64,000 bases of DNA. Origin: an uncultured Bacteroidales bacterium. Its GTDB lineage: Bacteria; Bacteroidota; Bacteroidia; Bacteroidales; Paludibacteraceae. The notes beneath the pieces were generated by a model that was not told the origin of the DNA, ran no database searches, and saw only the letters and a program-made list of their open reading frames with translations. The position numbers and the translations under genes are program-made. The stretch lies in assembly GCA_902765485.1 (NCBI GenBank), contig CACWZZ010000016.1:41991-105990 (forward strand), in the 5' to 3' direction. This document shows positions 31,257 through 56,031 of this stretch, piece after piece (position 1 is the first letter of the stretch; every line of letters begins with the position of its first letter).

Positions 31257-31300
31257 ATCAATTAGTTTTTGAGTTAATAGATTTGTCCTAAATCCGAGTG

Positions 31301-31308
31301 CAAAGGTA
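31301..31308 (-). promoter_or_regulatory. -7 promoter box (TACCTTTG on minus strand)
   Basis: TAnnTTTG match 45 nt upstream of 31256. Confidence 0.55.
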
Positions 31309-31598
31309 CAACATTTTTTTGACATACACAAAAAAAATGTGCACTTCGCGAAAAAAGTACACAATTTTTTCAATATTAAGACGTTTTGTCCGATTATTTT
31401 ACCACTACCGGCTCGTATTTCGGTACAAGCGCCTTCATTACACTCCATCCGATCAGGTAAGTGTGTTCTGCTGATAGAAAGAACCAGCCTGCTCGGAGGT
31501 GAAGCAGGCAAGAAAAGGCGTTTTGCTATAGATTCTTGAAGATAAGGGGCATGGCTTCGGGGGCTAAGGGGTTGGTAGGAAGCCTAATCGCGATCTTT

Positions 31599-37045: not shown

Positions 37046-38071
37046 TTATCTCTGAACACGACCATTCGCATTGCCTCCGGCAAGCGAGAGAACTTCGTCT
37101 TCAGAAACGAGGTTGTAGTCGCCGTTAATGGTGTGCTTCAGAGCCGAAGCAGCTACTGCGAACTCAAGAGCCGATGCCTGGTCGCCCGGATACTTGAGCA
37201 TACCGTGGATCAGACCGCCGGAGAACGAGTCACCACCACCTACGCGGTCGATGATCGGGTTGATCTCGTAACGCTTGGACTGGTAGAACTCCTTACCGTT
37301 GTAGATCATAGCCTTCCAGCCGTTGAAGGTAGCGCTGTAGCTCTCGCGCAGCGTCGAAACAACGTACTTGAAGCCGAACTCCTTCATCATCTGCTCGAAG
37401 ATGCCCTTGTAGCCCTCAGCGTTGGTCTCGCCGCCTTCTACATCTGCATCGGGCTTGAAACCGAGGCACAACTCTGCATCTTCCTCGTTGCCGATACAAA
37501 CATCCACATACTTCATCAACGGACGCATGATCGAGATAGCTTTCTCGCTGGTCCACAGTTTCTTACGGAAGTTCAGGTCAACGGAAACAGTTACACCGTG
37601 ACGTTTTGCAGCCTCGCAAGCCAATTTGGTGATCTCAGCAGCCTTGTCCGAGATAGCCGGAGTGATGCCGCTCCAGTGGAACCATGCTGCGCCTTCCATG
37701 ATCTTATCGAAGTCAAAGTCCTTTGGATCAGCCTCAGCGATAGCGCTGTGTGCACGGTCGTAAATCACTTTCGACGGACGCATCGAAGCACCGGTCTCAC
37801 AATAATACAGACCCACGCGGTCGCCGCCACGAACGATATAATCGTCTTTTACGCCATAACGACGCAGCGAGTTAACGGCAATCTGACCGATCTCGTGCTT
37901 CGGCAGTTTGGTTACCAGATAAGCCTCGTGGCCGTAGTTAGCGCACGAAATAGCCACGTTAGCCTCACCACCACCGGGAATAATTCTAAAGTGATCAGAC
38001 TGGATGAAACGGTCTTGTCCTTCAGGACTCAGGCGGAGCATAATCTCGCCCAACGTAATAATTTTAGCCAT
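37046..38071 (-). CDS. kdgK: 2-dehydro-3-deoxygluconokinase
   Basis: PfkB motifs GGGEANVA and VGGGDSFSGGLIHG. Confidence 0.85.
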   Translation of the reverse strand: MAKIITLGEIMLRLSPEGQDRFIQSDHFRIIPGGGEANVAISCANYGHEAYLVTKLPKHEIGQIAVNSLRRYGVKDDYIVRGGDRVGLYYCETGASMRPSKVIYDRAHSAIAEADPKDFDFDKIMEGAAWFHWSGITPAISDKAAEITKLACEAAKRHGVTVSVDLNFRKKLWTSEKAISIMRPLMKYVDVCIGNEEDAELCLGFKPDADVEGGETNAEGYKGIFEQMMKEFGFKYVVSTLRESYSATFNGWKAMIYNGKEFYQSKRYEINPIIDRVGGGDSFSGGLIHGMLKYPGDQASALEFAVAASALKHTINGDYNLVSEDEVLSLAGGNANGRVQR

Positions 38072-38173
38072 AGGTTAAATGAATTAAATTGGTTAATAAA
38101 TATTGTTAATTAGTTGTTGTTTGCTTTATTTGGTTTCGTTTGGTTTTCTGTTTTTATTTTTTGTGAGGATGAT

Positions 38174-38204
38174 TCTCCGTCTATTAGCCCCGAATTTTAT
38201 TCGG
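38174..38204. repeat. REP-like hairpin element, copy 1 (contains the stop codon of the Y1 gene)
   Basis: CTCCGTCTATTAGC + CCCGAAT-TTT-ATTCGGG. Confidence 0.7.
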
Positions 38205-39231
38205 GTTTGTTCAAAGCCTCGCATATTTCCTCTGCCATTTTATTCATCGCCACACACTCGGCTCTGGTCACATGCGGCTTGTCCGGATCATGCTGCCACG
38301 GCGATAGTATCAACATCCTTCCCTCTGCGACCGCCTCAAACAATCCCTCTGCAGGTTTGTAATACTCGCCAAATCCATTCTCCGCGATATAAATAATGGT
38401 ATGTTTCTCGCGCAGCAACACCTCCAATACCTCTTTCTCTTTCGGACTAATGAACGGCGACACCATCACAGTCCCTTTACGAGCCGCCAGCACACATCCG
38501 TTCATATACTCGCGTAGCCGTGTCGCGTCTCCATGCTGCTCAGCATCTTCCACCCAAATCCTCCGCACATGTACCGGCGAGAACTTCTCTGCCTGCAAAA
38601 TGCCTATATTCCCAATTCCGCTATATTTCTGTCCCGCTATCTCTATATCTCGCTGCACTCTGAAATATCCCGGCATCAACCTTTTCGTTGCTAACCTCTG
38701 CGGGTTCATCTGCACATAGCGGATCATCGTTTGTAGTTGTCCCTTGTGTGACATTGGACGCACAAACGGGCGCTCCGTGAAGATCGGAAATGGGAGGCCT
38801 CCATTCCCTTCTCTCGCATTATTTGCCATTCCCTCTCCGTCCATTAGCCCCGAATTTAATTCGGGATAAATCAACGGAGAATATGCCCGTCCTATTTTCT
38901 TAACGCCCTGCCACAAACTGCGGATTACATTATTTATACTTTGTGTCATCGGCTTGGTGACATAGTATATTACATGCAAGTGATCGGGCATCAAACAATG
39001 CTGTATTACCTTTATCTCCGGATAGTAATGATTGATGCGTAATGCTTCTTCTGTTATCCGGTCCCCAAGTTCTGTCCTTTCCACCGCCGCTTGTTTCGGA
39101 TCATTCTCCGGAATGACAAGCCTCCCCAACAAAGCCTCTCTGCTTGGCACAACCAGCGTAACATGGTAAATGCCGACACCTCTCCATGCCGTTCCCATTT
39201 CTTGCCATTTCCATGTCTCCTGTTCTGCCAT
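38197..39231 (-). CDS. RayT/IS200-like Y1 (HUH) transposase domain fused to a DprA/SLOG-like C-terminal domain
   Basis: HUH motif PDHLHVIYY; Y-motif IRYVQMNPQR. C-terminus aligns by eye to the DprA core (GNIGILQ, VHVRR, GTVMVSPF, TIIYIAENGF, GRMLILSP). Confidence 0.65.
   Translation of the reverse strand: MAEQETWKWQEMGTAWRGVGIYHVTLVVPSREALLGRLVIPENDPKQAAVERTELGDRITEEALRINHYYPEIKVIQHCLMPDHLHVIYYVTKPMTQSINNVIRSLWQGVKKIGRAYSPLIYPELNSGLMDGEGMANNAREGNGGLPFPIFTERPFVRPMSHKGQLQTMIRYVQMNPQRLATKRLMPGYFRVQRDIEIAGQKYSGIGNIGILQAEKFSPVHVRRIWVEDAEQHGDATRLREYMNGCVLAARKGTVMVSPFISPKEKEVLEVLLREKHTIIYIAENGFGEYYKPAEGLFEAVAEGRMLILSPWQHDPDKPHVTRAECVAMNKMAEEICEALNKPE
38835..38865. repeat. REP-like hairpin element, copy 2 (in-frame inside the Y1 gene)
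   Basis: CTCCGTCCATTAGC + CCCGAAT-TTA-ATTCGGG; encodes YPELNSGLMDGE. Confidence 0.7.
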
Positions 39232-39251
39232 TTTCTTTTAGTTTTCGAGTG

Positions 39252-39316
39252 GGGGTACAATTTGTACCCCTCGTCAATCTGTGCTTTTTTCTTAAGGTTG
39301 GGGACAAATTGTCCCC
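39252..39316. repeat. two related perfect palindromes upstream of the Y1 gene
   Basis: GGGGTACAA-T-TTGTACCCC (39252-39270) and GGGGACAA-A-TTGTCCCC (39300-39316). Confidence 0.8.
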
Positions 39317-39380
39317 TGGTCAGTTGGGTAGTAGTACTTAACCACTTCTGTTCCGTTTTTCATTGTTTTTTCTCTACTAC

Positions 39381-39455
39381 CGGCTTACGAGCGGCATACG
39401 AGACGGATACGAGACGATAACTATTAGCGATAACTTAGCGGTCTATCAGCCACTC
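39381..39455. repeat. degenerate 11-bp periodic array
   Basis: GGCTTACGAGC GGCATACGAGA CGGATACGAGA CGATAACTATT AGCGATAACTT AGCGGTCTATC. Confidence 0.55.
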
Positions 39456-39589
39456 TCGCGCCATTTCAATTTATCCTTATTTATGTTCAAACATATACCC
39501 CTCTATATAATAATCAAAATAAAGCCCAAATCTATCACCTCAAATGCAAGTTTTTAAGTTCTTTCATTGATTCTATACTATTCTGCCTA

Positions 39590-40855
39590 TTATTCGATTC
39601 TTCGCAAATAAGCATTGTTACTTTCTTTGAATATTTTGTTAATCTCATCATTTTCAAAGCCTATAATATTGAGCATGCAACATAATAAGATTTTTCTTAA
39701 TTTGTGATTTAAATAATATAATTCTATACCGTCTAAAACATTTTTCTTCTTTCCTGTTGGCAATAAATGTGAATAATGATGTCTTGAATCACAGATACAA
39801 TCTATGTCATGATCTGATAACTCTATAGCGGCAATGTCGGAAAACTTCTCTCTCAATTGAGTTAAAAGCTTTTTAAGACAAGGCTCGTCTTTTATGAAAC
39901 GATAGTAATAACCTTCCACCGCCTGAACCACTACCAGAAAATCCACGCTACTGAACACTCTGCGTCTACTCACACTATCTATCAAATGAGCACGAATTGG
40001 AAACAATTCCTTTTCTGCATACCATTTTTGTATTACCAAGGGAAACTTATCTTTTATAATGTCATACACAAATAAGTAATCCCAAAATCGTTCGCAATTA
40101 TTACTTCTTTCTTTCTCGCTGTCATCAAATATTTCTATAGTGTAGTTCTCTGTTGGATCTGTTTTTTTATCTTTATCAATAAGAAGCAACTTATCACATC
40201 GCACCGAAGTTAGAGTGGCAAAAGATAGAAATTGTTCGAAAAGAAAGACTTTCATATTTGCCTCACGAATCGAAACGGGGTTTGCGAATAAAAAGTTAAG
40301 TGAAGTCTTTTGCTCAAACTCAACTCGCATACCTGTTTTGCCAGTAGTAAAATTGGATTCTCCTGCAATTTTCAAATTACAACCTTCTTCTATCTGTACA
40401 ATTACATTATTTGCTTCTTTGATATCTGCACTACACGAATAACTTTGTTCGTTCCAATGCGCGTGCAGGCAATTCGGTTTAAACCAATATGTTAATTCGT
40501 CAATATATGCAGCAACATCGTAGTTACCTAATTCATTCAAAGACTTAATATGTTTCCCCACCGCAACGATTTGCCCTTTATATTCTGCAACAGCAAAAGG
40601 ACAACTTGTATTTACAGAAATAGACTCATAACAGTTAAATACACTTATTTTCTTCGATTCCGAAGAGACTCCCCAAATAACAGCATAATGAACACTATTT
40701 CTACTCACTAAATGATGTAAAGGATTGCTCTCGCCTAGAGCACCAATTGTCTCAAGGGTGATTTTCCCCTTTTCTACACTTAATGTCCCTGCTACTTGAT
40801 TGTCTGGCGCGTCAGGCAACCACCATAATCCTTTATAGTCGTTGGGCGTCTTCAT
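39590..40855 (-). CDS. ApeA-like protein: N-terminal ApeA-type beta-rich domain plus C-terminal HEPN (predicted RNase)
   Basis: N-terminus YKGLWWLPDAPDNQVAGTLSVEKGKITLETIG; C-terminal Rx4H motif DSRHHYSHL. Confidence 0.6.
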   Translation of the reverse strand: MKTPNDYKGLWWLPDAPDNQVAGTLSVEKGKITLETIGALGESNPLHHLVSRNSVHYAVIWGVSSESKKISVFNCYESISVNTSCPFAVAEYKGQIVAVGKHIKSLNELGNYDVAAYIDELTYWFKPNCLHAHWNEQSYSCSADIKEANNVIVQIEEGCNLKIAGESNFTTGKTGMRVEFEQKTSLNFLFANPVSIREANMKVFLFEQFLSFATLTSVRCDKLLLIDKDKKTDPTENYTIEIFDDSEKERSNNCERFWDYLFVYDIIKDKFPLVIQKWYAEKELFPIRAHLIDSVSRRRVFSSVDFLVVVQAVEGYYYRFIKDEPCLKKLLTQLREKFSDIAAIELSDHDIDCICDSRHHYSHLLPTGKKKNVLDGIELYYLNHKLRKILLCCMLNIIGFENDEINKIFKESNNAYLRRIE

Positions 40856-40955
40856 TAAACTTTATCAATTTTAACAAATCGTTTCCTTATACTTTCTGCA
40901 CATGTATTTAATTCTGATATATTTCGTTTATTTCATCTTTCAACGTGCTTTTAAT

Positions 40956-41750
40956 TTATACTTCTATTTTGTCAACTTTGAGCACCTTATTATACAATAT
41001 TGATTTCTTGAAATTTGCCGCCGGATATGCCTTCAAAATTCTTTCACGAATCAACTTTCTCTCGGCGTCGTATTTTGCTATCTCTATTTTAGAAGCGAGA
41101 TTTTCTTCAGACTTGTTTGCAGGATAATATGTAATGCGTTTTATCATATTAACATCAACCGGTACATTTAACACATTCTTATGTAGATTGTCATTGACTT
41201 TGCCAGGATTTCTAGGGATTATAAAAAATCTTACTTCATTTTCATATTTAAATGCATTTCTTTTTAATGACATAATCTTGATATACTGTTCCTCATTAAA
41301 ATTTTGGAAAAAATCTTGATAATGCGGACTAGATGTCGAATATAGATTGTCTATTTCAGCTTTTTTTAGATTATAATTTACTTTTGCTAGATATACATCA
41401 CACTCCTTTTCTTCTGCAAAAGAAAGTAAACTAGAGATAAAAACTTCTGTTTGAATTACAAGACGTAGCAAGGGGTCGTTATCCCTTTTGTATATTTTCC
41501 AAGAGGCTTCTTCATTTTGCAGATCCATTCTGGCGCAAAAACAATAGATCGTAGGCTGTCTATATCCATTTAACCCAGTGTAATCTGTGTTTAGATATTT
41601 GATCTCATATGGATCATACCAGAGCTCAGGAGAAACAAAACCAATTTGATGTGGCTCTTGTTCTAATATATTCAGTACACGACTTGTACATATATATTTA
41701 TATATGTATGCCGGAACTTTAGGTAAATCAATTAATTTTATCTCTTTCAT
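40956..41750 (-). CDS. DUF2971-like protein
   Basis: IYKYICTSRVLNILEQ..., FVSPELWYDPYE (cf. FNDPFE) and YENEVRFFI motifs. Confidence 0.6.
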   Translation of the reverse strand: MKEIKLIDLPKVPAYIYKYICTSRVLNILEQEPHQIGFVSPELWYDPYEIKYLNTDYTGLNGYRQPTIYCFCARMDLQNEEASWKIYKRDNDPLLRLVIQTEVFISSLLSFAEEKECDVYLAKVNYNLKKAEIDNLYSTSSPHYQDFFQNFNEEQYIKIMSLKRNAFKYENEVRFFIIPRNPGKVNDNLHKNVLNVPVDVNMIKRITYYPANKSEENLASKIEIAKYDAERKLIRERILKAYPAANFKKSILYNKVLKVDKIEV

Positions 41751-41859
41751 ATATATTAAGTTTTTAAGTGTCCTTATATCTTCTCCCTCTCATCCGTCTG
41801 TCTTCCATTAGTCTCCATCGGATGCTCATCGGGTGCTCACTATGACGACGCCGTAACAT

Positions 41860-42182
41860 CTACGGCACGATACCCTGCTTTCTCTTCTCGCTCAACTCAT
41901 GTTTGATATAATCGTACAGCCTCCCTTGTATAGGCTTGTTATATTTCCTTGCCTTCCGCACAGCCTCCTCATATCGTGCCTGCCATTCCGCCTTACGCAC
42001 CTCAGCTCAGCAAAAGCTTTTGCCGTTGGGTGTTCTGCTTTTGCTTTCTTTGTTTTCTTGCTCAACTCCGGCTTCGCGCACACGGCTGCCCATTCCCCGT
42101 TTCCGGGTATCCGCCGTGCATAATGTCTCTGATCCACATTTCCCTGCAAACTATCCACTATATTCACCCACTTCGCTTTCAT
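41860..42182 (-). pseudogene. small conserved-looking gene disrupted by a 5-bp tandem duplication
   Basis: GCTGAGCTGAGG at ~42005-42016 on the coding strand. Removing one GCTGA joins MKAKWVNIVD...AKAFAE to VRKAEWQARYEEAVRKARKYNKPIQGRLYDYIKHELSEKRKQGIVP*. Confidence 0.55.
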
Positions 42183-42193
42183 TTGATTTTCTT

Positions 42194-42784
42194 TTACTCA
42201 AAAAATGTTATGCTATTCATGTAATTCTCATATAACCCTTCTTTTAATTCTAAAATGGAAGGAGACAACTTTTTCACTATTTCTAAGTCATAATTCTTAT
42301 CTACATTTCCGCTTGATTCTAATATTTTATCTATAGCTCGATCAATATCTTCTCTTCCGAGAGATCTGCTTTTCTCCTTAAATGTTAATACTCTTTCCGT
42401 CTTAATCTTTTCTCCAGAAGTATCAAATATATCATACCCGTTTTGAAAAGGGTGTGCAGCACTATCCCTCCGATATATTATATAAATGCATTCATCATCT
42501 GAAAGTGTATCGCATATTTTGTTAAGACATGTAGTTACTTTTAATATATATTTATCCTTACCGAACTTTTGGGATATTTCTTCACTTTTCATTTTTAATA
42601 ATTCAGCAAGTTTAATATAAAATAATTGCTGATACCATCTATCATAGTTGCTACTTAAAGCCTCCGTTACACAAACAAAGTCTAATATCCATTGAATAAA
42701 CAAAAACCTTTCTGTAGGAATCTTACTCGCAACTTGATACTCTTTACCATAGTATATTTCTTCTATAGTTTTTCCTTTAACCAT
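42194..42784 (-). CDS. 196-aa protein with a HEPN-like Rx4H motif
   Basis: IYRRDSAAHPF in a mostly helical-looking protein, AbiV-like size; motif-level evidence only. Confidence 0.4.
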   Translation of the reverse strand: MVKGKTIEEIYYGKEYQVASKIPTERFLFIQWILDFVCVTEALSSNYDRWYQQLFYIKLAELLKMKSEEISQKFGKDKYILKVTTCLNKICDTLSDDECIYIIYRRDSAAHPFQNGYDIFDTSGEKIKTERVLTFKEKSRSLGREDIDRAIDKILESSGNVDKNYDLEIVKKLSPSILELKEGLYENYMNSITFFE

Positions 42785-42799
42785 TTTAACAAACCTTTA

Positions 42800-44704
42800 T
42801 TACACCTTTCTCTTATTGTTTCTTGATTTTTTGAGTATAGAATATCTCATATCTTCCGTTTTTTGCAGAACTCCATTCTTTACTAGATTTGACAAAATTG
42901 TTCTAATACTTTTTTCAGAACTATTGGGACGCAGTATAAGAGCTTTCTTGTAAATTTCTTCTCGTGCTATAGGTTCTTTCTCTTGTTTTAGTACTTCTAT
43001 TACTGCATCTTGAAGAGTACCTTTAAACTGTAATGATTCTTCTATTACATACAGAGATGTCCTTCCTATTGGCTTCAAACGGTTATCTTTACATACGTAG
43101 GTACGTATTTGCTTGCTATTTGAGAATGGATATTGCGGATATTCTTGTTTAAACGCAGCAAACATTTCTTCTATAGAAACAGGTTTGTCTTGTGCTTTAA
43201 CATATTCATACAGAAATTGACGAACATTAACTTTTTCTCCACTTTCCAAATCGCTATACCTTGAATCATCTGAATCTGATATGTTATACAACTTTTTTAA
43301 TAGATAGCCTAAGAACTCTTTTACATCCGGAACGAACTCATGTATTACACCATCTTGCCACAATGAGTTTTTAAAACAGAATCTTTTCCAATCTATGGCG
43401 AAATTTATACCCTTCTTTTCTATTTCTTTTCCTATTTGATATAAAGCTGTATAATAATCAAATTTTGTTAAGACAGAATTACATACAAAGAAGAAAGGAG
43501 TATTATAGTGTATTTCTCCACTTTCTTGATAAGATTGATGAAGCGTAACTATACTATTAGCATCAAGATATAATTCAGAAAAACAAAGTTCTGGATTGAG
43601 TAATCTACATAATATACAGAATCCGTCATACTCATATTGCAACTTTTCTTTTACCGCCAATTTCTCAAATTGTGTATTACTTTCTGTAAAAAAAGAGTTA
43701 TTTAAAAACGGGTAATAGTCCAACACTTCTTGCTTTGTGGTTTCTAACAAGTCATATATGCATGTGTCTAATTTGCAAAAAGTCTGGCGTAACAATTTGT
43801 TGACATATACAGGTAATTTATGAAGTTTGTCTCCTATTTCAGCAACTGACATAGGAGAAGAATAAAACCCAAAATATGAGTAGAATATGTCTAATGCACG
43901 TGGCGTAAAGAACATGAGTAGTATTTTTTCCAATACGAAGAAAACAGGAATTATACCATGTTCCTTTTTATATTTAAAAATAAATTCTATATCGTTAGAA
44001 TTCAGTAGGAAATAATATTTTATAAAAGAAGGGATTTGGTTATCTTCTAATGTAAGAATAAATTCCAACCTTTCAATAAACAATTTCTGAATTCTATACT
44101 CAGGTGAATTCTCTTTGCGAACATCTGTTATTATTGCGTAAATATTGGAATAATATTTCTCTATTCTTTCCAACTCTTTACCTCTTAAATTTTGAACATA
44201 TATATAATGATACAAATTTTTCTCTAGTACATCATCTAGTTGGTCTCCATATTTAGCCTTAATTTTGCATAGTAGAACCTTTTTATTTGCGAGGCTTTCA
44301 CAATTACGAATAAAACGTTCAATCAAATCCCTTGAACGCGGAGCAATTTCATAAGTATTATAAGCTGAAATTAATTGATTATAAGTTCTAATGGAATATT
44401 TTTTCAAAAAAGTCTGGACAGATGATGCCGATGTTCCCTCTATAACTGCTTCATCTAAAAAATATTCCCTGTATTCATTAATATTATCAATAGATAATGG
44501 ATAATTGACAACAATATTTTCCATAAACTCTATTATCTCTGTAGCGGTTTGTTTCCCACAATTAGTAGCAGAAAATATAGTTTCCTTGCTTGTCAAATAA
44601 ACAAGCGTGCAAAAAGCATTATCTAGTTTTAATAATTCAAGAACATTTTTTGCACGAGTAGATAACTGCTTAAATTTTGCTATGTAATATTGCTGCAATG
44701 TCAT
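42800..44704 (-). CDS. 634-aa multi-HTH protein: alpha-CTD-like HhH, sigma-70 region-4-like HTH, two HARE-HTH-like winged helices
   Basis: LSTRAKNVLELL...NCGKQTATEI; RALDIFYSYFGFYSSPMSVAEIGDKLHKLPVYVNKLLRQTFCKL; VSIEEMFAAFKQEYP...; PIAREEIYKKALILRPNSSEKSIRTILSNLVKNGVL. Confidence 0.5.
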   Translation of the reverse strand: MTLQQYYIAKFKQLSTRAKNVLELLKLDNAFCTLVYLTSKETIFSATNCGKQTATEIIEFMENIVVNYPLSIDNINEYREYFLDEAVIEGTSASSVQTFLKKYSIRTYNQLISAYNTYEIAPRSRDLIERFIRNCESLANKKVLLCKIKAKYGDQLDDVLEKNLYHYIYVQNLRGKELERIEKYYSNIYAIITDVRKENSPEYRIQKLFIERLEFILTLEDNQIPSFIKYYFLLNSNDIEFIFKYKKEHGIIPVFFVLEKILLMFFTPRALDIFYSYFGFYSSPMSVAEIGDKLHKLPVYVNKLLRQTFCKLDTCIYDLLETTKQEVLDYYPFLNNSFFTESNTQFEKLAVKEKLQYEYDGFCILCRLLNPELCFSELYLDANSIVTLHQSYQESGEIHYNTPFFFVCNSVLTKFDYYTALYQIGKEIEKKGINFAIDWKRFCFKNSLWQDGVIHEFVPDVKEFLGYLLKKLYNISDSDDSRYSDLESGEKVNVRQFLYEYVKAQDKPVSIEEMFAAFKQEYPQYPFSNSKQIRTYVCKDNRLKPIGRTSLYVIEESLQFKGTLQDAVIEVLKQEKEPIAREEIYKKALILRPNSSEKSIRTILSNLVKNGVLQKTEDMRYSILKKSRNNKRKV

Positions 44705-44904
44705 AAATAGACTTGTAAATCTTTATTTTCTTCAATAATTATTCCTTTCTTCTCTCGTTCTCTCAATACCTCCATCCACAACTCAATCTGTCGTGCGGTG
44801 GTTGTGGTTCTTTTGACAATATCCTTTTCAGTTCCTCCATATCCGGCATGGTCTTGTCGGTTACAACCGCTAAATCTTGATTGTGGCACTATCTGCAATT
44901 GCAA
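44701..44904 (-). CDS. small ORF (67 aa) translationally coupled to the 634-aa gene
   Basis: ATGA overlap at 44701-44704; no motif recognised; true start may be internal. Confidence 0.3.
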   Translation of the reverse strand: MQLQIVPQSRFSGCNRQDHAGYGGTEKDIVKRTTTTARQIELWMEVLREREKKGIIIEENKDLQVYL

Positions 44905-44921
44905 TTGTCGGTCCTTTTTTT

Positions 44922-44949
44922 AGATTTTCCAATCGCGATAGGAAAATCT
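44922..44949. promoter_or_regulatory. 28-bp near-perfect palindrome, candidate operator of the island's first gene
   Basis: AGATTTTCC-A-ATCGCGAT-A-GGAAAATCT, 18 nt upstream of the 67-aa ORF. Confidence 0.4.
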
Positions 44950-45010
44950 ATACTCAAAATATTTATTCAGATCTGCCATAAATAACGTGCAAATCTACAC
45001 GTTAACCACT

Positions 45011-45045
45011 CCCCGCTCACCCCTCGTTTTGAGAGGCAAGCGGGG
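45011..45045 (-). terminator. nested GC-rich stem-loop after uxaC
   Basis: CCCCGCT...AGCGGGG with inner CCTC-GTTTT-GAGG; resembles the in-CDS hairpin family. Confidence 0.45.
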
Positions 45046-45057
45046 ATGCGTAGTCAT

Positions 45058-46476
45058 TTAGAACTTGAAGTAGTTCTTCGCGTTGTTGTAGCAGATGTCT
45101 TCGACCATCTGTTGAACGCGGGCTTTCTCATAACCGGTGTACGGGATCATACCGTTCTCGATGTCGTTACCGAGGACGTTACAGAGTGTGCGGCGGAAGT
45201 ACTCGTGACGCGGGTAGCTCAGGAACGAACGGCTGTCGGTCAGCATACCTACCATGCGGCTCAAGAGACCGAGGTTACTCAAAGCCATCATCTGCTTCTC
45301 CATACCGTCCTTCTGATCGAGGAACCACCAGCCCGAACCGAACTGAATCTTACCAGGAACGGAACCGTCCTGGAAGTTACCCAACATAGTGGCAATCACT
45401 TCGTTTGCGCACGGGTTGAGGTTGTAGAGAATGGTCTTTGCGAGGTGTCCTTCGCTGTTCATCTCGTCGAGGAAATGGCTCATCGCTTTTGCGGTTGTGA
45501 ACTCGCCGATGGAGTCGAAACCGGTGTCTGCGCCGAGTTGAGCGAACATCTTGGAGTTATTGTTACGGATAGCGCCGTAGTGGTATTGCTGGGTCCAACC
45601 TGAAGCGTAGTCCATCTCAGCCTGCGCGTGCAGGTAAGCGTGCTTGTACTGGCGGATCTCATAAACGCTCAACTCCTTGCCGGCGAGAGCTTTCCGGAAG
45701 ATCTCATTGATCTCTGCGTCGGTGTACGGCTCGTCGTAGAACTCCTCGATACCGTGGTCGGAGAGACGGCAACCCATCGACTCAAAGAAGTCATGGCGTT
45801 TCTGGAGAGCGTCCACCATGTCCGCAAAGTTGCGAATCTCAACACCGGCAACCTTAGCCAGTTTCTCGATATAGGCTTTCCAAGTAGCGGCTTCGATGTT
45901 CATACCTGCGTCCGGACGCCAAGTCGGCAACATACGTACCTCTGCGGTCGGGTCTTCTTTCACCATCTTGTGCCACTCGAGGCTGTCAGCCGGGTCGTCA
46001 GTCGTGCAGACAAGTTCTACATGGTAGTGCTTCATCAGTCCGCGCGGACAGAACTTCGGGTCGTTGGCAATCAGGTCGTTACACTTGTCATAGATAGCGC
46101 GTGCAGTCTCCGGGTTCAAACGCTCCTCGATACCGAAAGCGGTCTTGAGCTCCAGATGGGTCCAGTGGTACAACGGGTTGCGGAAAGTGTACGGAACGGT
46201 CTCCGCCCATTTCTCGAACTTCTCCCAGTCGGTAGTATCCTTGCCGGTACAGAAACGCTCGTCCACACCGTTGGAACGCATAGCGCGCCATTTGTAGTGG
46301 TCGCCCATGAGCCAGATCTGTGCAATCGACTCAAAACGTTTGTTTTCGGCAACCATCTGGGGAATAAGGTGACAGTGATAATCGATAATCGGCATCTTAG
46401 CAGCATGCTCGTGATACAGTTCCTGCGCGGTCTCTGTCTGCAGCAGGAAGTCTTTGTCCATGAAAGGCTTGATCAT
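45058..46476 (-). CDS. uxaC: glucuronate isomerase
   Basis: Full-length UxaC pattern (MPIIDYHCHL, NPLYHWTHLEL, SRSFLSYPRHEYFRR). Confidence 0.9.
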   Translation of the reverse strand: MIKPFMDKDFLLQTETAQELYHEHAAKMPIIDYHCHLIPQMVAENKRFESIAQIWLMGDHYKWRAMRSNGVDERFCTGKDTTDWEKFEKWAETVPYTFRNPLYHWTHLELKTAFGIEERLNPETARAIYDKCNDLIANDPKFCPRGLMKHYHVELVCTTDDPADSLEWHKMVKEDPTAEVRMLPTWRPDAGMNIEAATWKAYIEKLAKVAGVEIRNFADMVDALQKRHDFFESMGCRLSDHGIEEFYDEPYTDAEINEIFRKALAGKELSVYEIRQYKHAYLHAQAEMDYASGWTQQYHYGAIRNNNSKMFAQLGADTGFDSIGEFTTAKAMSHFLDEMNSEGHLAKTILYNLNPCANEVIATMLGNFQDGSVPGKIQFGSGWWFLDQKDGMEKQMMALSNLGLLSRMVGMLTDSRSFLSYPRHEYFRRTLCNVLGNDIENGMIPYTGYEKARVQQMVEDICYNNAKNYFKF

Positions 46477-48271: not shown

Positions 48272-49264
48272 ATGGCGAGTTTATCAGACATACGTCACCC
48301 CGTTGAGGCTGGTTGGAAGCGATACGAGAAGGCGCTCCGCGAGACCATGCAATCGGACGAGCAGATCCAGCAGAAAGTGCTGGATTATATCGTTGCGCGT
48401 GCCGGCAAACAACTGCGTCCGCTGATCGTACTGCTCTCTGCGCAGATATGCAACCCCATTACCGACAAGACCCTTCGTTCGGCTGTCGCTCTGGAGATGT
48501 TGCACAATGCCAGCTTGGTGCATGACGATGTGGTGGATAGTTCGGGCACCCGCCGCGGACAGCCTGCCGTGCATACCCAGTGGAGCAACAAGGTCGCCAT
48601 TCTCACGGGCGACTACATGCTGGCAAAAGTGATCGGGCTGGTAGCCGAAGTGCGCAATATCCGTATTTTGGAACTCGTCTCGCAGTTAGGCCGCAGCCTC
48701 TCCGGCGGCGAGATGCTCCAGCTCCACGTCGGGCAATCAATGTGGATCGACGAAGAGCGATACCTGAAGGTCATCGACCAGAAGACCGCACAACTCTTCC
48801 AAGCCTGCGCTGAGATAGGCGCAGAGTCTGCCGGTTGCACCACGAGGCAACGAACCGCCCTCCGCCAGTTCGGACGATTGCTGGGACTTTGTTTCCAGAT
48901 CAAAGATGATATCTTCGATTATAGCGACTTGGAGGAGATCGGCAAGCCGACCATGAGTGACCTGCGTGATGGCAAAGTGACCCTGCCACTCATCATCGCG
49001 CTCCGCCGTGCGCCGCAACCCGAAGCGGATCACATCCGGTCATTGGGAGAACGGCTGGCAGCTAATGAGTTAGGCTCCGAGACCGAGAAAGCGCTGCAGG
49101 AGATCAAGTCCTTTGTGCTGCGGTTCAAAGGCGACGAATACGCCGTGCAGCAGATGATTGAGTATAAAAAACAAGCCACAGAAGCCTTACAGGTCTTCCG
49201 TGACTCAGCGGAAAAGAAGAGTCTGATTGACTTACTCGACTACTCCATCAATCGCGTTCAGTAA
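48272..49264 (+). CDS. polyprenyl diphosphate synthase
   Basis: LVHDDVVD and KDDIFD aspartate-rich motifs. Confidence 0.85.
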   Translation: MASLSDIRHPVEAGWKRYEKALRETMQSDEQIQQKVLDYIVARAGKQLRPLIVLLSAQICNPITDKTLRSAVALEMLHNASLVHDDVVDSSGTRRGQPAVHTQWSNKVAILTGDYMLAKVIGLVAEVRNIRILELVSQLGRSLSGGEMLQLHVGQSMWIDEERYLKVIDQKTAQLFQACAEIGAESAGCTTRQRTALRQFGRLLGLCFQIKDDIFDYSDLEEIGKPTMSDLRDGKVTLPLIIALRRAPQPEADHIRSLGERLAANELGSETEKALQEIKSFVLRFKGDEYAVQQMIEYKKQATEALQVFRDSAEKKSLIDLLDYSINRVQ

Positions 49265-55930: not shown

Positions 55931-56003
55931 CTGCTTTTTTTTAATATACACAATATTTTCAAGAAAATTTTACTAATTTCTTGCGTATTCCAAAAAAATG
56001 TAG

Positions 56004-56011
56004 TACCTTTG
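56004..56011 (+). promoter_or_regulatory. -7 promoter box (TACCTTTG)
   Basis: 21 nt upstream of the tRNA 5' end. Confidence 0.55.
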
Positions 56012-56031
56012 CACCCGATTTCCTGGTGAAA

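Follow-up and report, generated by a model that had tools for sequence, protein, structure and literature searches.

The P2/P4-type hotspots of enterobacteria are variable defence hotspots that lie between conserved genes. In PglW, a protein of type 2 bacteriophage exclusion (BREX), the central region holds a helical domain resembling the C-terminal domain of the RNA polymerase alpha subunit (alpha-CTD), followed by several winged helices, and binds nucleic acid (PMC12839542). Fast-evolving winged helix-turn-helix (wHTH) or DNA-binding "sensor" subunits have been proposed for HerA/FtsK capture systems and for BrxA/DUF4007 (PMC10853773, PMC12839542). Here we analyze a locus of an uncultured Bacteroidales bacterium (64,000 nucleotides (nt), positions 41,991 to 105,990 of contig CACWZZ010000016.1, assembly GCA_902765485.1; hereafter the window) in which the gene of a 634-amino-acid (aa) protein is followed by that of a 196-aa protein. 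A sequence-only reading had joined these two genes, a preceding 67-aa open reading frame (ORF) and a palindrome into one coupled system of sensor and RNase effector. From comparison with related loci we conclude that this stretch probably represents a single cargo load in a variable defence hotspot at uxaC-kdgK, comprising two separable modules and not one fixed system.

Results

The 634-aa and 196-aa genes are separable within a variable hotspot

Comparison of the window with related loci by blastn places both genes in a hotspot at 38148-45032, between uxaC and kdgK/eda, where five related strains (the window, L001, L005, L006 and L008) hold five cargo sets. In L005, both flanks are syntenic with the window (the 3' end of uxaC at one edge; at the other, kdgK, eda and the gene of a 480-aa protein), and homology on the uxaC side ends at window position 45032. 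A RhuM/Fic gene and a lipoprotein gene stand there in place of the 634-aa gene, and homology picks up again at exactly 42801, covering a 196-aa gene with an internal deletion and then the small gene, which is intact in L005 and encodes 115 aa. In L008, a gene for a PH_gly_zipper membrane protein lies 5' of a 196-aa gene whose product is 94% identical to that of the window, and the two loci share the same module boundary (Table 1). L001 carries P0002, a 641-aa homologue of the 634-aa protein with 47% identity and a DUF2971 gene 5' of it; the start of the small gene follows 8 nt past the P0002 stop codon, identical over 30 nt, and the 196-aa gene is absent. The pair is separable because homology in L005 and L008 resumes at 42801 behind different upstream genes, and because L001 lacks the 196-aa gene altogether.

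The pair does recur in L006, with the same 15-nt gap and with proteins that are 92% (634-aa) and 81% (196-aa) identical to those of the window. The L006 196-aa gene is itself a mosaic, its N-terminal half being identical and its C-terminal half resembling other lineages. Homologues of the two proteins are therefore neighbours in a second, near-identical locus, but the next 634-aa homologue, P0002, is directly followed by a different gene. The proposal of a coupled sensor-effector system is not supported by this comparison: the pair was found only in the window and in L006, P0002 has no partner, and 196-aa homologues lie 3' of unrelated genes.

The cargo is bordered by the small gene, which has a GC content of 0.50 against 0.30 for the cargo. 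Its start lies 3' of the cargo in L001, L005, L006 and L008, and three of the five hotspot cargos are certainly bounded 3' by it. Its product belongs to a family of small basic proteins (111-115 aa, GC 0.44-0.52, no Pfam or PHROG match) with members in the window, L005:2731-3078, L003:7668-8003 and L004:1-261. These genes are found 7-18 nt from AT-rich cargo, either 3' of it (window, L001, L005, L006, L008) or 5' of it (L003, L004, L006), and the small basic protein gene looks like the anchor of the hotspot. By direct tblastn the 111-aa L003 protein did not match the window, and the two could be connected only by way of the intact copy in L005. A further small-protein match at 48272-48391 was weak, fell inside a polyprenyl synthase gene and was discarded as spurious. 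No integrase or phage genes were seen at the hotspot.

Two short sequences recur near cargo genes. An identical 16-mer, CCGATAGTTTGACTTG, lies inside a longer conserved stretch at L002:15-30, L005:1349-1364 and L009:5744-5759. It precedes cargo genes in each of these loci, in L005 and L009 directly following a RhuM-family gene, and may mark a cassette boundary. A 40-nt element, GTGCAAAGGTACAACAnTTATTTGGAATACGCAAATATTTTG, is present just 5' of cargo genes at L001:3-42, L005:1385-1424 and L008:19-58, as well as at window positions 31293-31332 and 55981-56017, and is probably a Bacteroidales-type promoter.

Both families occur in varied genomic settings

Contexts were sampled at ~11 loci for the 196-aa family and ~7 loci for the 634-aa family, mostly on short metagenomic contigs. 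Homologues of the 196-aa protein are encoded 3' of at least six unrelated genes. In two loci (L003 and L007) the upstream gene encodes a 657-aa T5orf172 protein, these large proteins being 48% identical to each other; one homologue follows a complete PDC-M24A/B pair, others follow genes for unrelated 204-aa and 208-aa proteins, and one stands alone behind a 253-nt gap. Apart from the two T5orf172 proteins, the upstream partners share no mutual similarity.

In the T5orf172 loci (L003:8022-10585 and L007:330-2884), the T5orf172/MUG113 (GIY-YIG-like) domain forms the C-terminal part of the 657-aa protein, whose gene is separated by a 5-nt gap from that of a 194-aa family member or overlaps it by 1 nt; this is the best-conserved pairing of the 196-aa family. 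We also note a distant 205-aa relative in a conserved island (L016:1-8618) with more than 20 similar contigs; besides this relative, the island encodes a PARIS-like AAA_15 ATPase with DUF4276, an MmeI-type enzyme, a 204-aa protein, a DEAD helicase, a DUF3800 protein and a T5orf172 protein.

The settings of the 634-aa family are similarly diverse. The relative in L010 is encoded 5' of a PDC-S31 gene, and P0003 is fused to leucine-rich repeats and followed by a 256-aa protein unrelated to the 196-aa family. In L011-L013 the relative is the last gene of a conserved operon that also encodes a weakly mad8/HerA-like protein, a GHKL ATPase and a radical-SAM protein, and the Segatella copri relative has no partner gene next to it on the same strand. 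The 196-aa gene was absent beside P0002, P0013, P0014, P0021 and the S. copri relative. Searches by tblastn gave no match in phages and one distant relative per query in plasmids; a plasmid tblastn with two other family members returned nothing useful.

The four-gene operon (L011:613-8409, L012:622-8421, L013:117-7916) consists of genes for a 562-aa protein (mad8 at E 8.7e-8 and HerA at E 1.5e-4, both weak), the GHKL ATPase (HATPase_c_3) and the radical-SAM protein (658 aa; phrog_9298 at E 1e-36), followed by the gene of a 634-aa relative that is 802-806 aa long and carries extra helicase-associated (HA) repeats. It may constitute an undescribed multi-gene system.

The 634-aa family combines DNA-binding modules of RNA polymerase type

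Taken alone, the 634-aa protein had DUF7669 as its sole Pfam match (residues 563-611, E 1.1e-5, 25.9 bits against a cut-off of 23), no match in PADLOC, NCBIfam or PHROGs, and noise only among PDB sequences. A word-indexed search with this protein recovered three relatives only, and an exhaustive HMMER search with a 2-sequence profile recovered 306 at E≤1e-3, 137 of them at E≤1e-10. We scanned 60 of the 306 relatives against Pfam and found RNA_pol_A_CTD in 33 (best E 1.5e-24), Sigma70_r4 in 16 (best E 1.3e-10), HARE-HTH in 5, DUF7669 in 4 and the HA domain in 2. A single relative gave a marginal DsrC match (E 6e-4) under the curated cut-off. None of the 60 carried an enzyme domain, nor did the window protein, in line with the sequence-only reading, which had seen no enzymatic motif. 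Longer family members carry added HA repeats, all named cluster members are called "hypothetical protein", and the wide family alignment was too diverse for a contig scan.

For a subfamily profile, the window protein was aligned with its 10 nearest relatives (11 sequences). The alignment resolves the blocks LSxRA...NCGxKTAxEL and LSxRA...RNxGxKTIxEL, a helix-turn-helix (HTH) block, a conserved block YPFLN...ENTNF outside these domain types, and the two winged helices, PIGRKSLY... and LRPDS...SIRT. The first of these blocks contains the first alpha-CTD-like helix-hairpin-helix, a call that the data uphold: profile positions 13-64 match the alpha-CTD chain 8syi_A at E 0.014, and the model has predicted local distance difference test (pLDDT) values of 63-75 in parts. 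A weaker second unit had also been proposed. Its block in the subfamily profile does match alpha-CTD structures (E 4.7e-5), and in 33 of the 60 relatives it matches RNA_pol_A_CTD, but the RNxGxKT signature is lost in the subclade of the 634-aa protein and P0002, so that the unit is degenerate in the window protein. The HTH resembling sigma-70 region 4 fares similarly: Sigma70_r4 supports it in 16 of the 60 relatives, and the block has the consensus ...LTxERVRQI in the wider family, but the window protein alone has no match, the subfamily profile matches region 4 of rpoD only marginally (E 0.13-0.6), and the motif is degenerate here. The C-terminal winged helices, which had been likened to HARE-HTH, are borne out by the above-threshold DUF7669 match in the window protein and by HARE-HTH in five relatives.

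The AlphaFold2 model of the 634-aa protein, built from a 2-sequence alignment, was poor overall (pLDDT 44.8), and the C-terminal winged helices are its sole well-predicted long stretch (pLDDT mostly 66-85). Foldseek with this model returned generic winged-helix proteins only (E 0.02-0.4), and the protein and its family show weak matches to Rok and BlaI-type winged helices. In sum, the protein appears to consist of DNA-binding modules of RNA polymerase type only, with no enzyme domain. These domain calls hold at the level of the family, the second alpha-CTD unit and the sigma-like HTH being degenerate in the window protein. As far as we found, no description exists of such an architecture, in which two alpha-CTD units are combined with a sigma region-4-like HTH, a helical central region and a pair of winged helices.

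The 196-aa family carries an invariant R-x4-H motif

The 196-aa family is small, with 13 clusters among 5.8 billion proteins. Its few organism-named records are all from Bacteroidales (Paludibacteraceae, Porphyromonadaceae and Bacteroides finegoldii). In an alignment of 11 sequences reaching down to 27% identity, the R-x4-H motif noticed earlier is indeed present and invariant. Residues E98, Y101, Y104, R105, R106, H111, Q114 and Y117 are identical in all 11, giving the family signature E-x2-Y-x2-YRR-x4-H-x2-Q-x2-Y, and the residue after R106 is D, N or H in 9 of the 11.

The AlphaFold2 model of this protein is confident (pLDDT 81.8) and contains helices and one beta-hairpin, with the motif at the C-terminal end of a helix. 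The HEPN fold that had been suggested was not recovered, however. No Pfam HEPN family matched any of the 11 members at E≤10, and Foldseek gave nothing under E 0.1 against PDB or BFVD; AbiV (9bj7_H) appeared at rank 42 with E 1.4 and a template modelling (TM) score of 0.25-0.31. The 196-aa protein had no match in PADLOC, NCBIfam or PHROG, two distant relatives had none in PADLOC, and the family profile found nothing relevant among PDB sequences. A scan of viral contigs with the family returned nothing, two scans of metagenome contigs were likewise empty, and a scan of genome contigs returned a single locus, L009.

Leader, palindrome and promoter-like elements

The 67-aa ORF, previously counted as a component of the system, begins with TTG, and its product has no family match in Pfam, PADLOC or NCBIfam. 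About 85 nt of leader (about 44705-44790) are kept 5' of homologous genes in L006 and in L002, an N-terminal homologue, and stop codons break the 67-aa frame in both of these conserved leaders; in L001 another gene ends only 36 nt 5' of the 634-aa homologue. Because the conserved leader frames are interrupted in relatives, and because of the position of this upstream gene in L001, we rejected the ORF as a gene and as a system component, and consider that it most plausibly represents the untranslated leader of the 634-aa family plus unrelated DNA.

The palindrome is real and slightly longer than first described (30 instead of 28 bp). Such a palindrome would be expected by chance at an estimated ~0.003 per 64 kb, and none of the 5 short-range inverted repeats in the whole window is comparable (the best reach 92% over 13-nt arms and 80% over 20-nt arms). 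Within the window, its half-site is present at the palindrome only. What did not hold is its standing as a conserved operator, since the half-site occurs in 0 of 17 related loci; around the palindrome, 270 nt of the window (44760-45031) are without a match in related loci. As an RNA hairpin it would be weak (-11.3 kcal/mol, z -0.8), and it has no Rfam match. Just 5' of it is a AAATATTTTG box, which resembles boxes in the promoter-like element ahead of cargo genes in L001, L005 and L008, and which we infer to be part of a promoter. The palindrome is possibly a protein-binding site; it might plausibly be an operator where transcription starts, although the comparison of loci gives this no support. 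A 21-nt inverted repeat around the 634-aa gene was set aside, being at chance level for AT-rich DNA.

Locus layout and neighbouring genes

The tight packing described earlier was confirmed in full, including the ORF coordinates, the ATGA overlap of the 67-aa ORF with the 634-aa gene (44701-44704) and the 15-nt gap between the 634-aa and 196-aa genes (42785-42799). All peptides quoted previously (LSTRAKNVLE...NCGKQTATEI, YSIRTYNQLI, SVAEIGDKLHKLPVYVNKLLRQTFCKL and RRDSAAH) were found in the translations. The genes lie in an AT-rich island at ~39250-44950, with a GC content of ~0.30 against ~0.52 in the flanks and of 0.30 in both the 634-aa and the 196-aa gene. The island starts right after a terminator-like hairpin of the uxaC-like gene, where GC drops from 0.53 to 0.30; this hairpin is probably the uxaC terminator and the edge of the conserved flank. 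No intrinsic terminator-like sites were detected across 41700-45200, no Rfam families in 38000-45200 and no tRNAs at the island edges. The coordinates of these features are collected in Table 1.

Table 1. Features of the 634-aa/196-aa locus and its neighbours (window coordinates)
Feature	Position	Strand	Description
GC-rich hairpin	45010..45046	-	inverted repeat, just after the uxaC-like gene (45058-46476)
Palindrome TAGATTTTCCtATCGCGATtGGAAAATCTA	44921..44950	.	30 bp, 15+15 nt, 14/15 pairs
67-aa ORF	44701..44904	-	mechanical ORF, TTG start
634-aa gene	42800..44704	-	unannotated family, non-enzymatic, several DNA-binding domains
First alpha-CTD-like helix-hairpin-helix	44519..44677	-	residues ~10-62, LSTRAKNVL...NCGKQTATEI; family consensus LSxRAxxV...NCGxKTAxEL
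Second, degenerate alpha-CTD-like helix-hairpin-helix	44306..44428	-	residues ~93-133, YSIRTYNQLI...; aligns to the LSxRA...RNxGxKTIxEL block
Sigma-70 region-4-like HTH, degenerate here	43772..43903	-	residues ~268-311; aligns to the ...LTxERVRQI block
Two tandem HARE-HTH/DUF7669-type winged helices	42830..43237	-	residues ~490-556 and ~560-625
Module boundary	42801	.	17 nt 5' of the 196-aa start codon; L005 2291 and L008 1232 both map here
196-aa gene	42194..42784	-	small family, Bacteroidales records only so far, usually last after various defence-island genes
YRRDSAAH motif (Y104 R105 R106 ... H111)	42452..42475	-	HEPN-like R-x4-H, invariant in 11 sequences
Frameshifted copy of the 115-aa small basic protein gene	41860..42182	-	11 nt 3' of the 196-aa gene; 31-nt deletion relative to the intact L005 copy
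DUF2971-like gene	40956..41750	-	PADLOC PDC-S31 (E 4e-22); Aristaios-type predicted ADP-ribosyltransferase
ApeA-type HEPN gene	39590..40855	-	ApeA_NTD1 E 1.3e-34, HEPN_Apea E 7.2e-12, PDC-S58 E 1.8e-45

The ApeA/PDC-S58 and DUF2971/PDC-S31 genes adjoin the pair, whose setting is therefore a defence island. DUF2971 is the domain of Aristaios, a validated lactococcal single-gene system, and is a predicted DarT-like ADP-ribosyltransferase (PMC11381338, PMC12522546). Window positions 38148-41778, with a Y1-transposase-like gene, ApeA and DUF2971, form an extra insertion that is absent from L005. The ApeA-type protein (39590-40855) is a second HEPN candidate of the same island. The product of the transposase-like gene (38197-39231, minus strand, inside the extra insertion) is 344 aa long and weakly resembles Y1/REP-associated tyrosine transposases. 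Two copies of a 41-nt repeat, 85% identical and containing the hairpin CCCGAATTTnATTCGGG, lie at the 3' end of the gene (38174-38214) and within its ORF (38834-38874).

Discussion

We therefore favour, as the probable explanation, that the uxaC-kdgK hotspot exchanges cargo and that the window holds two separable modules side by side. The 634-aa protein would bind DNA, and its role could be that of a sensing or targeting subunit or of a regulator for varied partners: in some relatives a protein of this type would serve the HerA-like/GHKL ATPase/radical-SAM operon, and others sit beside genes resembling DUF2971 ADP-ribosyltransferases. The 196-aa protein may be a self-contained, portable effector, most likely a HEPN-like RNase for abortive infection, whose gene would be expressed by read-through from the upstream gene or from a promoter of its own. 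In the window, a promoter beside the palindrome probably drives both genes as one transcript, because no terminator-like site was detected between them and their GC content is equal. A functional link specific to this lineage is possible and is not required by the comparative data; what had been read as a "system" is plausibly an operon of two uncharacterized genes.

Several observations weigh against this explanation. At most loci the 196-aa member lies 0-19 nt from the upstream gene or overlaps it, which is operon-like rather than fully autonomous, and the 15-nt spacing of the pair together with its recurrence in L006 makes real coupling in this lineage conceivable. Five of the context loci come from closely related strains, and the sample is small. 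HEPN membership is reasonable to propose for the 196-aa protein on account of its motif, but neither a profile match nor the fold was recovered, and a role of either protein in phage defence is likewise putative.

The same observations can be read in terms of a dedicated pair, in which the 634-aa protein mimics or binds contacts of the transcription machinery and activates a cognate 196-aa HEPN RNase, the two genes being autoregulated through the palindrome. Such a pair would fit the closeness of the genes (15 nt, with no terminator-like site found in between) and the recurrence of the arrangement in L006, as well as the verified domains of RNA polymerase type, the invariant R-x4-H and the defence-island setting. 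We nevertheless regard it as improbable: P0002, the only other full-length close homologue, lacks a 196-aa partner; P0013, P0014, P0021 and the S. copri relative either have different neighbours or lack any; 196-aa homologues with 94% and 87% identity follow different upstream genes, the junction lying 17 nt ahead of the ATG; neither the palindrome nor the 67-aa ORF is conserved; and the HEPN fold is unconfirmed. Recast as a classical type II toxin-antitoxin system, with a 196-aa toxin and a 634-aa DNA-binding antitoxin repressing at the palindrome, the locus would show a suitable gene order and spacing, a palindrome by a likely promoter and a DNA-binding upstream protein. Type II antitoxins are typically far smaller, however, and a length of 634 aa far exceeds their usual size. 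The putative toxin is without a 634-aa partner at most loci, including one solo copy, and the palindrome is absent from the only other locus with the pair, L006, which leaves this scheme scarcely credible.

If the close spacing reflects physical cooperation, the 196-aa family could instead be a shared downstream module (a common effector, regulator or chaperone) that works with any upstream gene. Gaps of at most 19 nt or overlaps with unrelated genes in the window, L003, L004, L006, L007, L014 and L016 are consistent with this, and the T5orf172 and 194-aa pair is kept over deep divergence. A common interface is unlikely, however, since the partners (a lipoprotein, a membrane protein, a nuclease-domain protein and a DNA-binding-only protein) share no similarity; one partner set, PDC-M24A/B, is already a complete two-gene candidate, and some copies lie behind gaps of 165-253 nt. 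We consider such a module unlikely while granting it an appreciable chance. The 634-aa protein, for its part, might be an island-borne DNA-binding regulator or nucleoid-type protein (a silencer, an anti-silencer or a recruiter of RNA polymerase), next to which the 196-aa gene would be unrelated cargo. Its content of transcription-type DNA-binding modules only, the AT-rich DNA, the weak Rok/BlaI-type winged-helix matches and the S. copri member with no adjacent same-strand partner all agree with this role, but relatives that end ATPase/radical-SAM operons or adjoin PDC-S31 fit conflict systems better, and we hold a purely regulatory function to be doubtful.

Among the factors by which phages take over transcription are AsiA-type anti-sigma proteins, activators that bind the alpha-CTD, and ADP-ribosyltransferases of Alt/ModA type. 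A highly speculative extension, to which we assign very little probability, is that the 634-aa family is a decoy of RNA polymerase, stringing together copies of the very modules that such factors grab or modify (alpha-CTD, sigma region 4 and delta-type HARE-HTH). Capture or modification of the decoy would then report infection to interchangeable partners, such as the 196-aa HEPN-like protein, DUF2971 or the GHKL/radical-SAM operon. The evidence is thin, and the idea seems worth testing because DUF2971 repeatedly adjoins 634-aa relatives (L001, L010).

Should the 634-aa family prove to act in defence, it would represent a sizeable unannotated class (~300 clusters at 50% identity) of non-enzymatic proteins that consist entirely of interaction modules derived from RNA polymerase and work with varied partners, and would bear on how bacteria sense the takeover of transcription by phages. 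The 196-aa family would add a new, small effector, portable as a 3' module. With five cargo combinations in related strains, the uxaC-kdgK locus offers a natural experiment on cassette exchange and gene function in the Bacteroidales, a group with few validated defence systems.

Comparison with known systems

The 634-aa, 196-aa and 67-aa products match no catalogued component in PADLOC-DB 2.0, in which the neighbouring genes match PDC-S58 and PDC-S31; the 634-aa protein gave no PADLOC model at E≤1 and its 806-aa relative none at E≤0.01. The uxaC-kdgK hotspot resembles the P2/P4-type hotspots in its conserved flanks, differing AT-rich cargo and sharp junctions, and differs from them in being chromosomal and apparently of the Bacteroidales, with a small gene as anchor that can lie 5' or 3' of the cargo. 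With AbiV and other small HEPN proteins, the 196-aa protein shares a length of ~200 aa, a largely helical structure, the R-[DNH]-x3-H motif, a setting in defence islands and the ability to stand alone, whereas sequence similarity and a Pfam HEPN match are absent and the Foldseek match to 9bj7_H has E 1.4.

The domain types of the 634-aa protein are homologous to the alpha-CTD, sigma-70 region 4 and delta/HARE-HTH domains of RNA polymerase, as judged by Pfam and the profile against PDB sequences; in contrast to the polymerase, they are combined in one polypeptide, without the alpha N-terminal domain and sigma region 2. Similarly to the HerA/FtsK capture subunits, the family comprises non-enzymatic multi-HTH proteins encoded with ATPases (in the operon of the 802-806-aa relatives), but those subunits have no sequence match to the 634-aa protein, the window protein lies outside such an operon, and the HerA assignment of the operon partner is weak. 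PglW is likened to the 634-aa protein by its alpha-CTD-like domain and winged helices. It has kinase and nuclease domains and an inactive STAND module, all of which the 634-aa protein lacks, whereas the latter adds a second alpha-CTD unit and the sigma region-4-like HTH. A role of the 634-aa protein as a sensing, targeting or regulatory subunit would match the proposals made for the alpha-CTD/winged-helix region of PglW and for the HerA/FtsK subunits. Both families are unannotated and not in PADLOC, and the parts and likely role of the 634-aa protein have known parallels.

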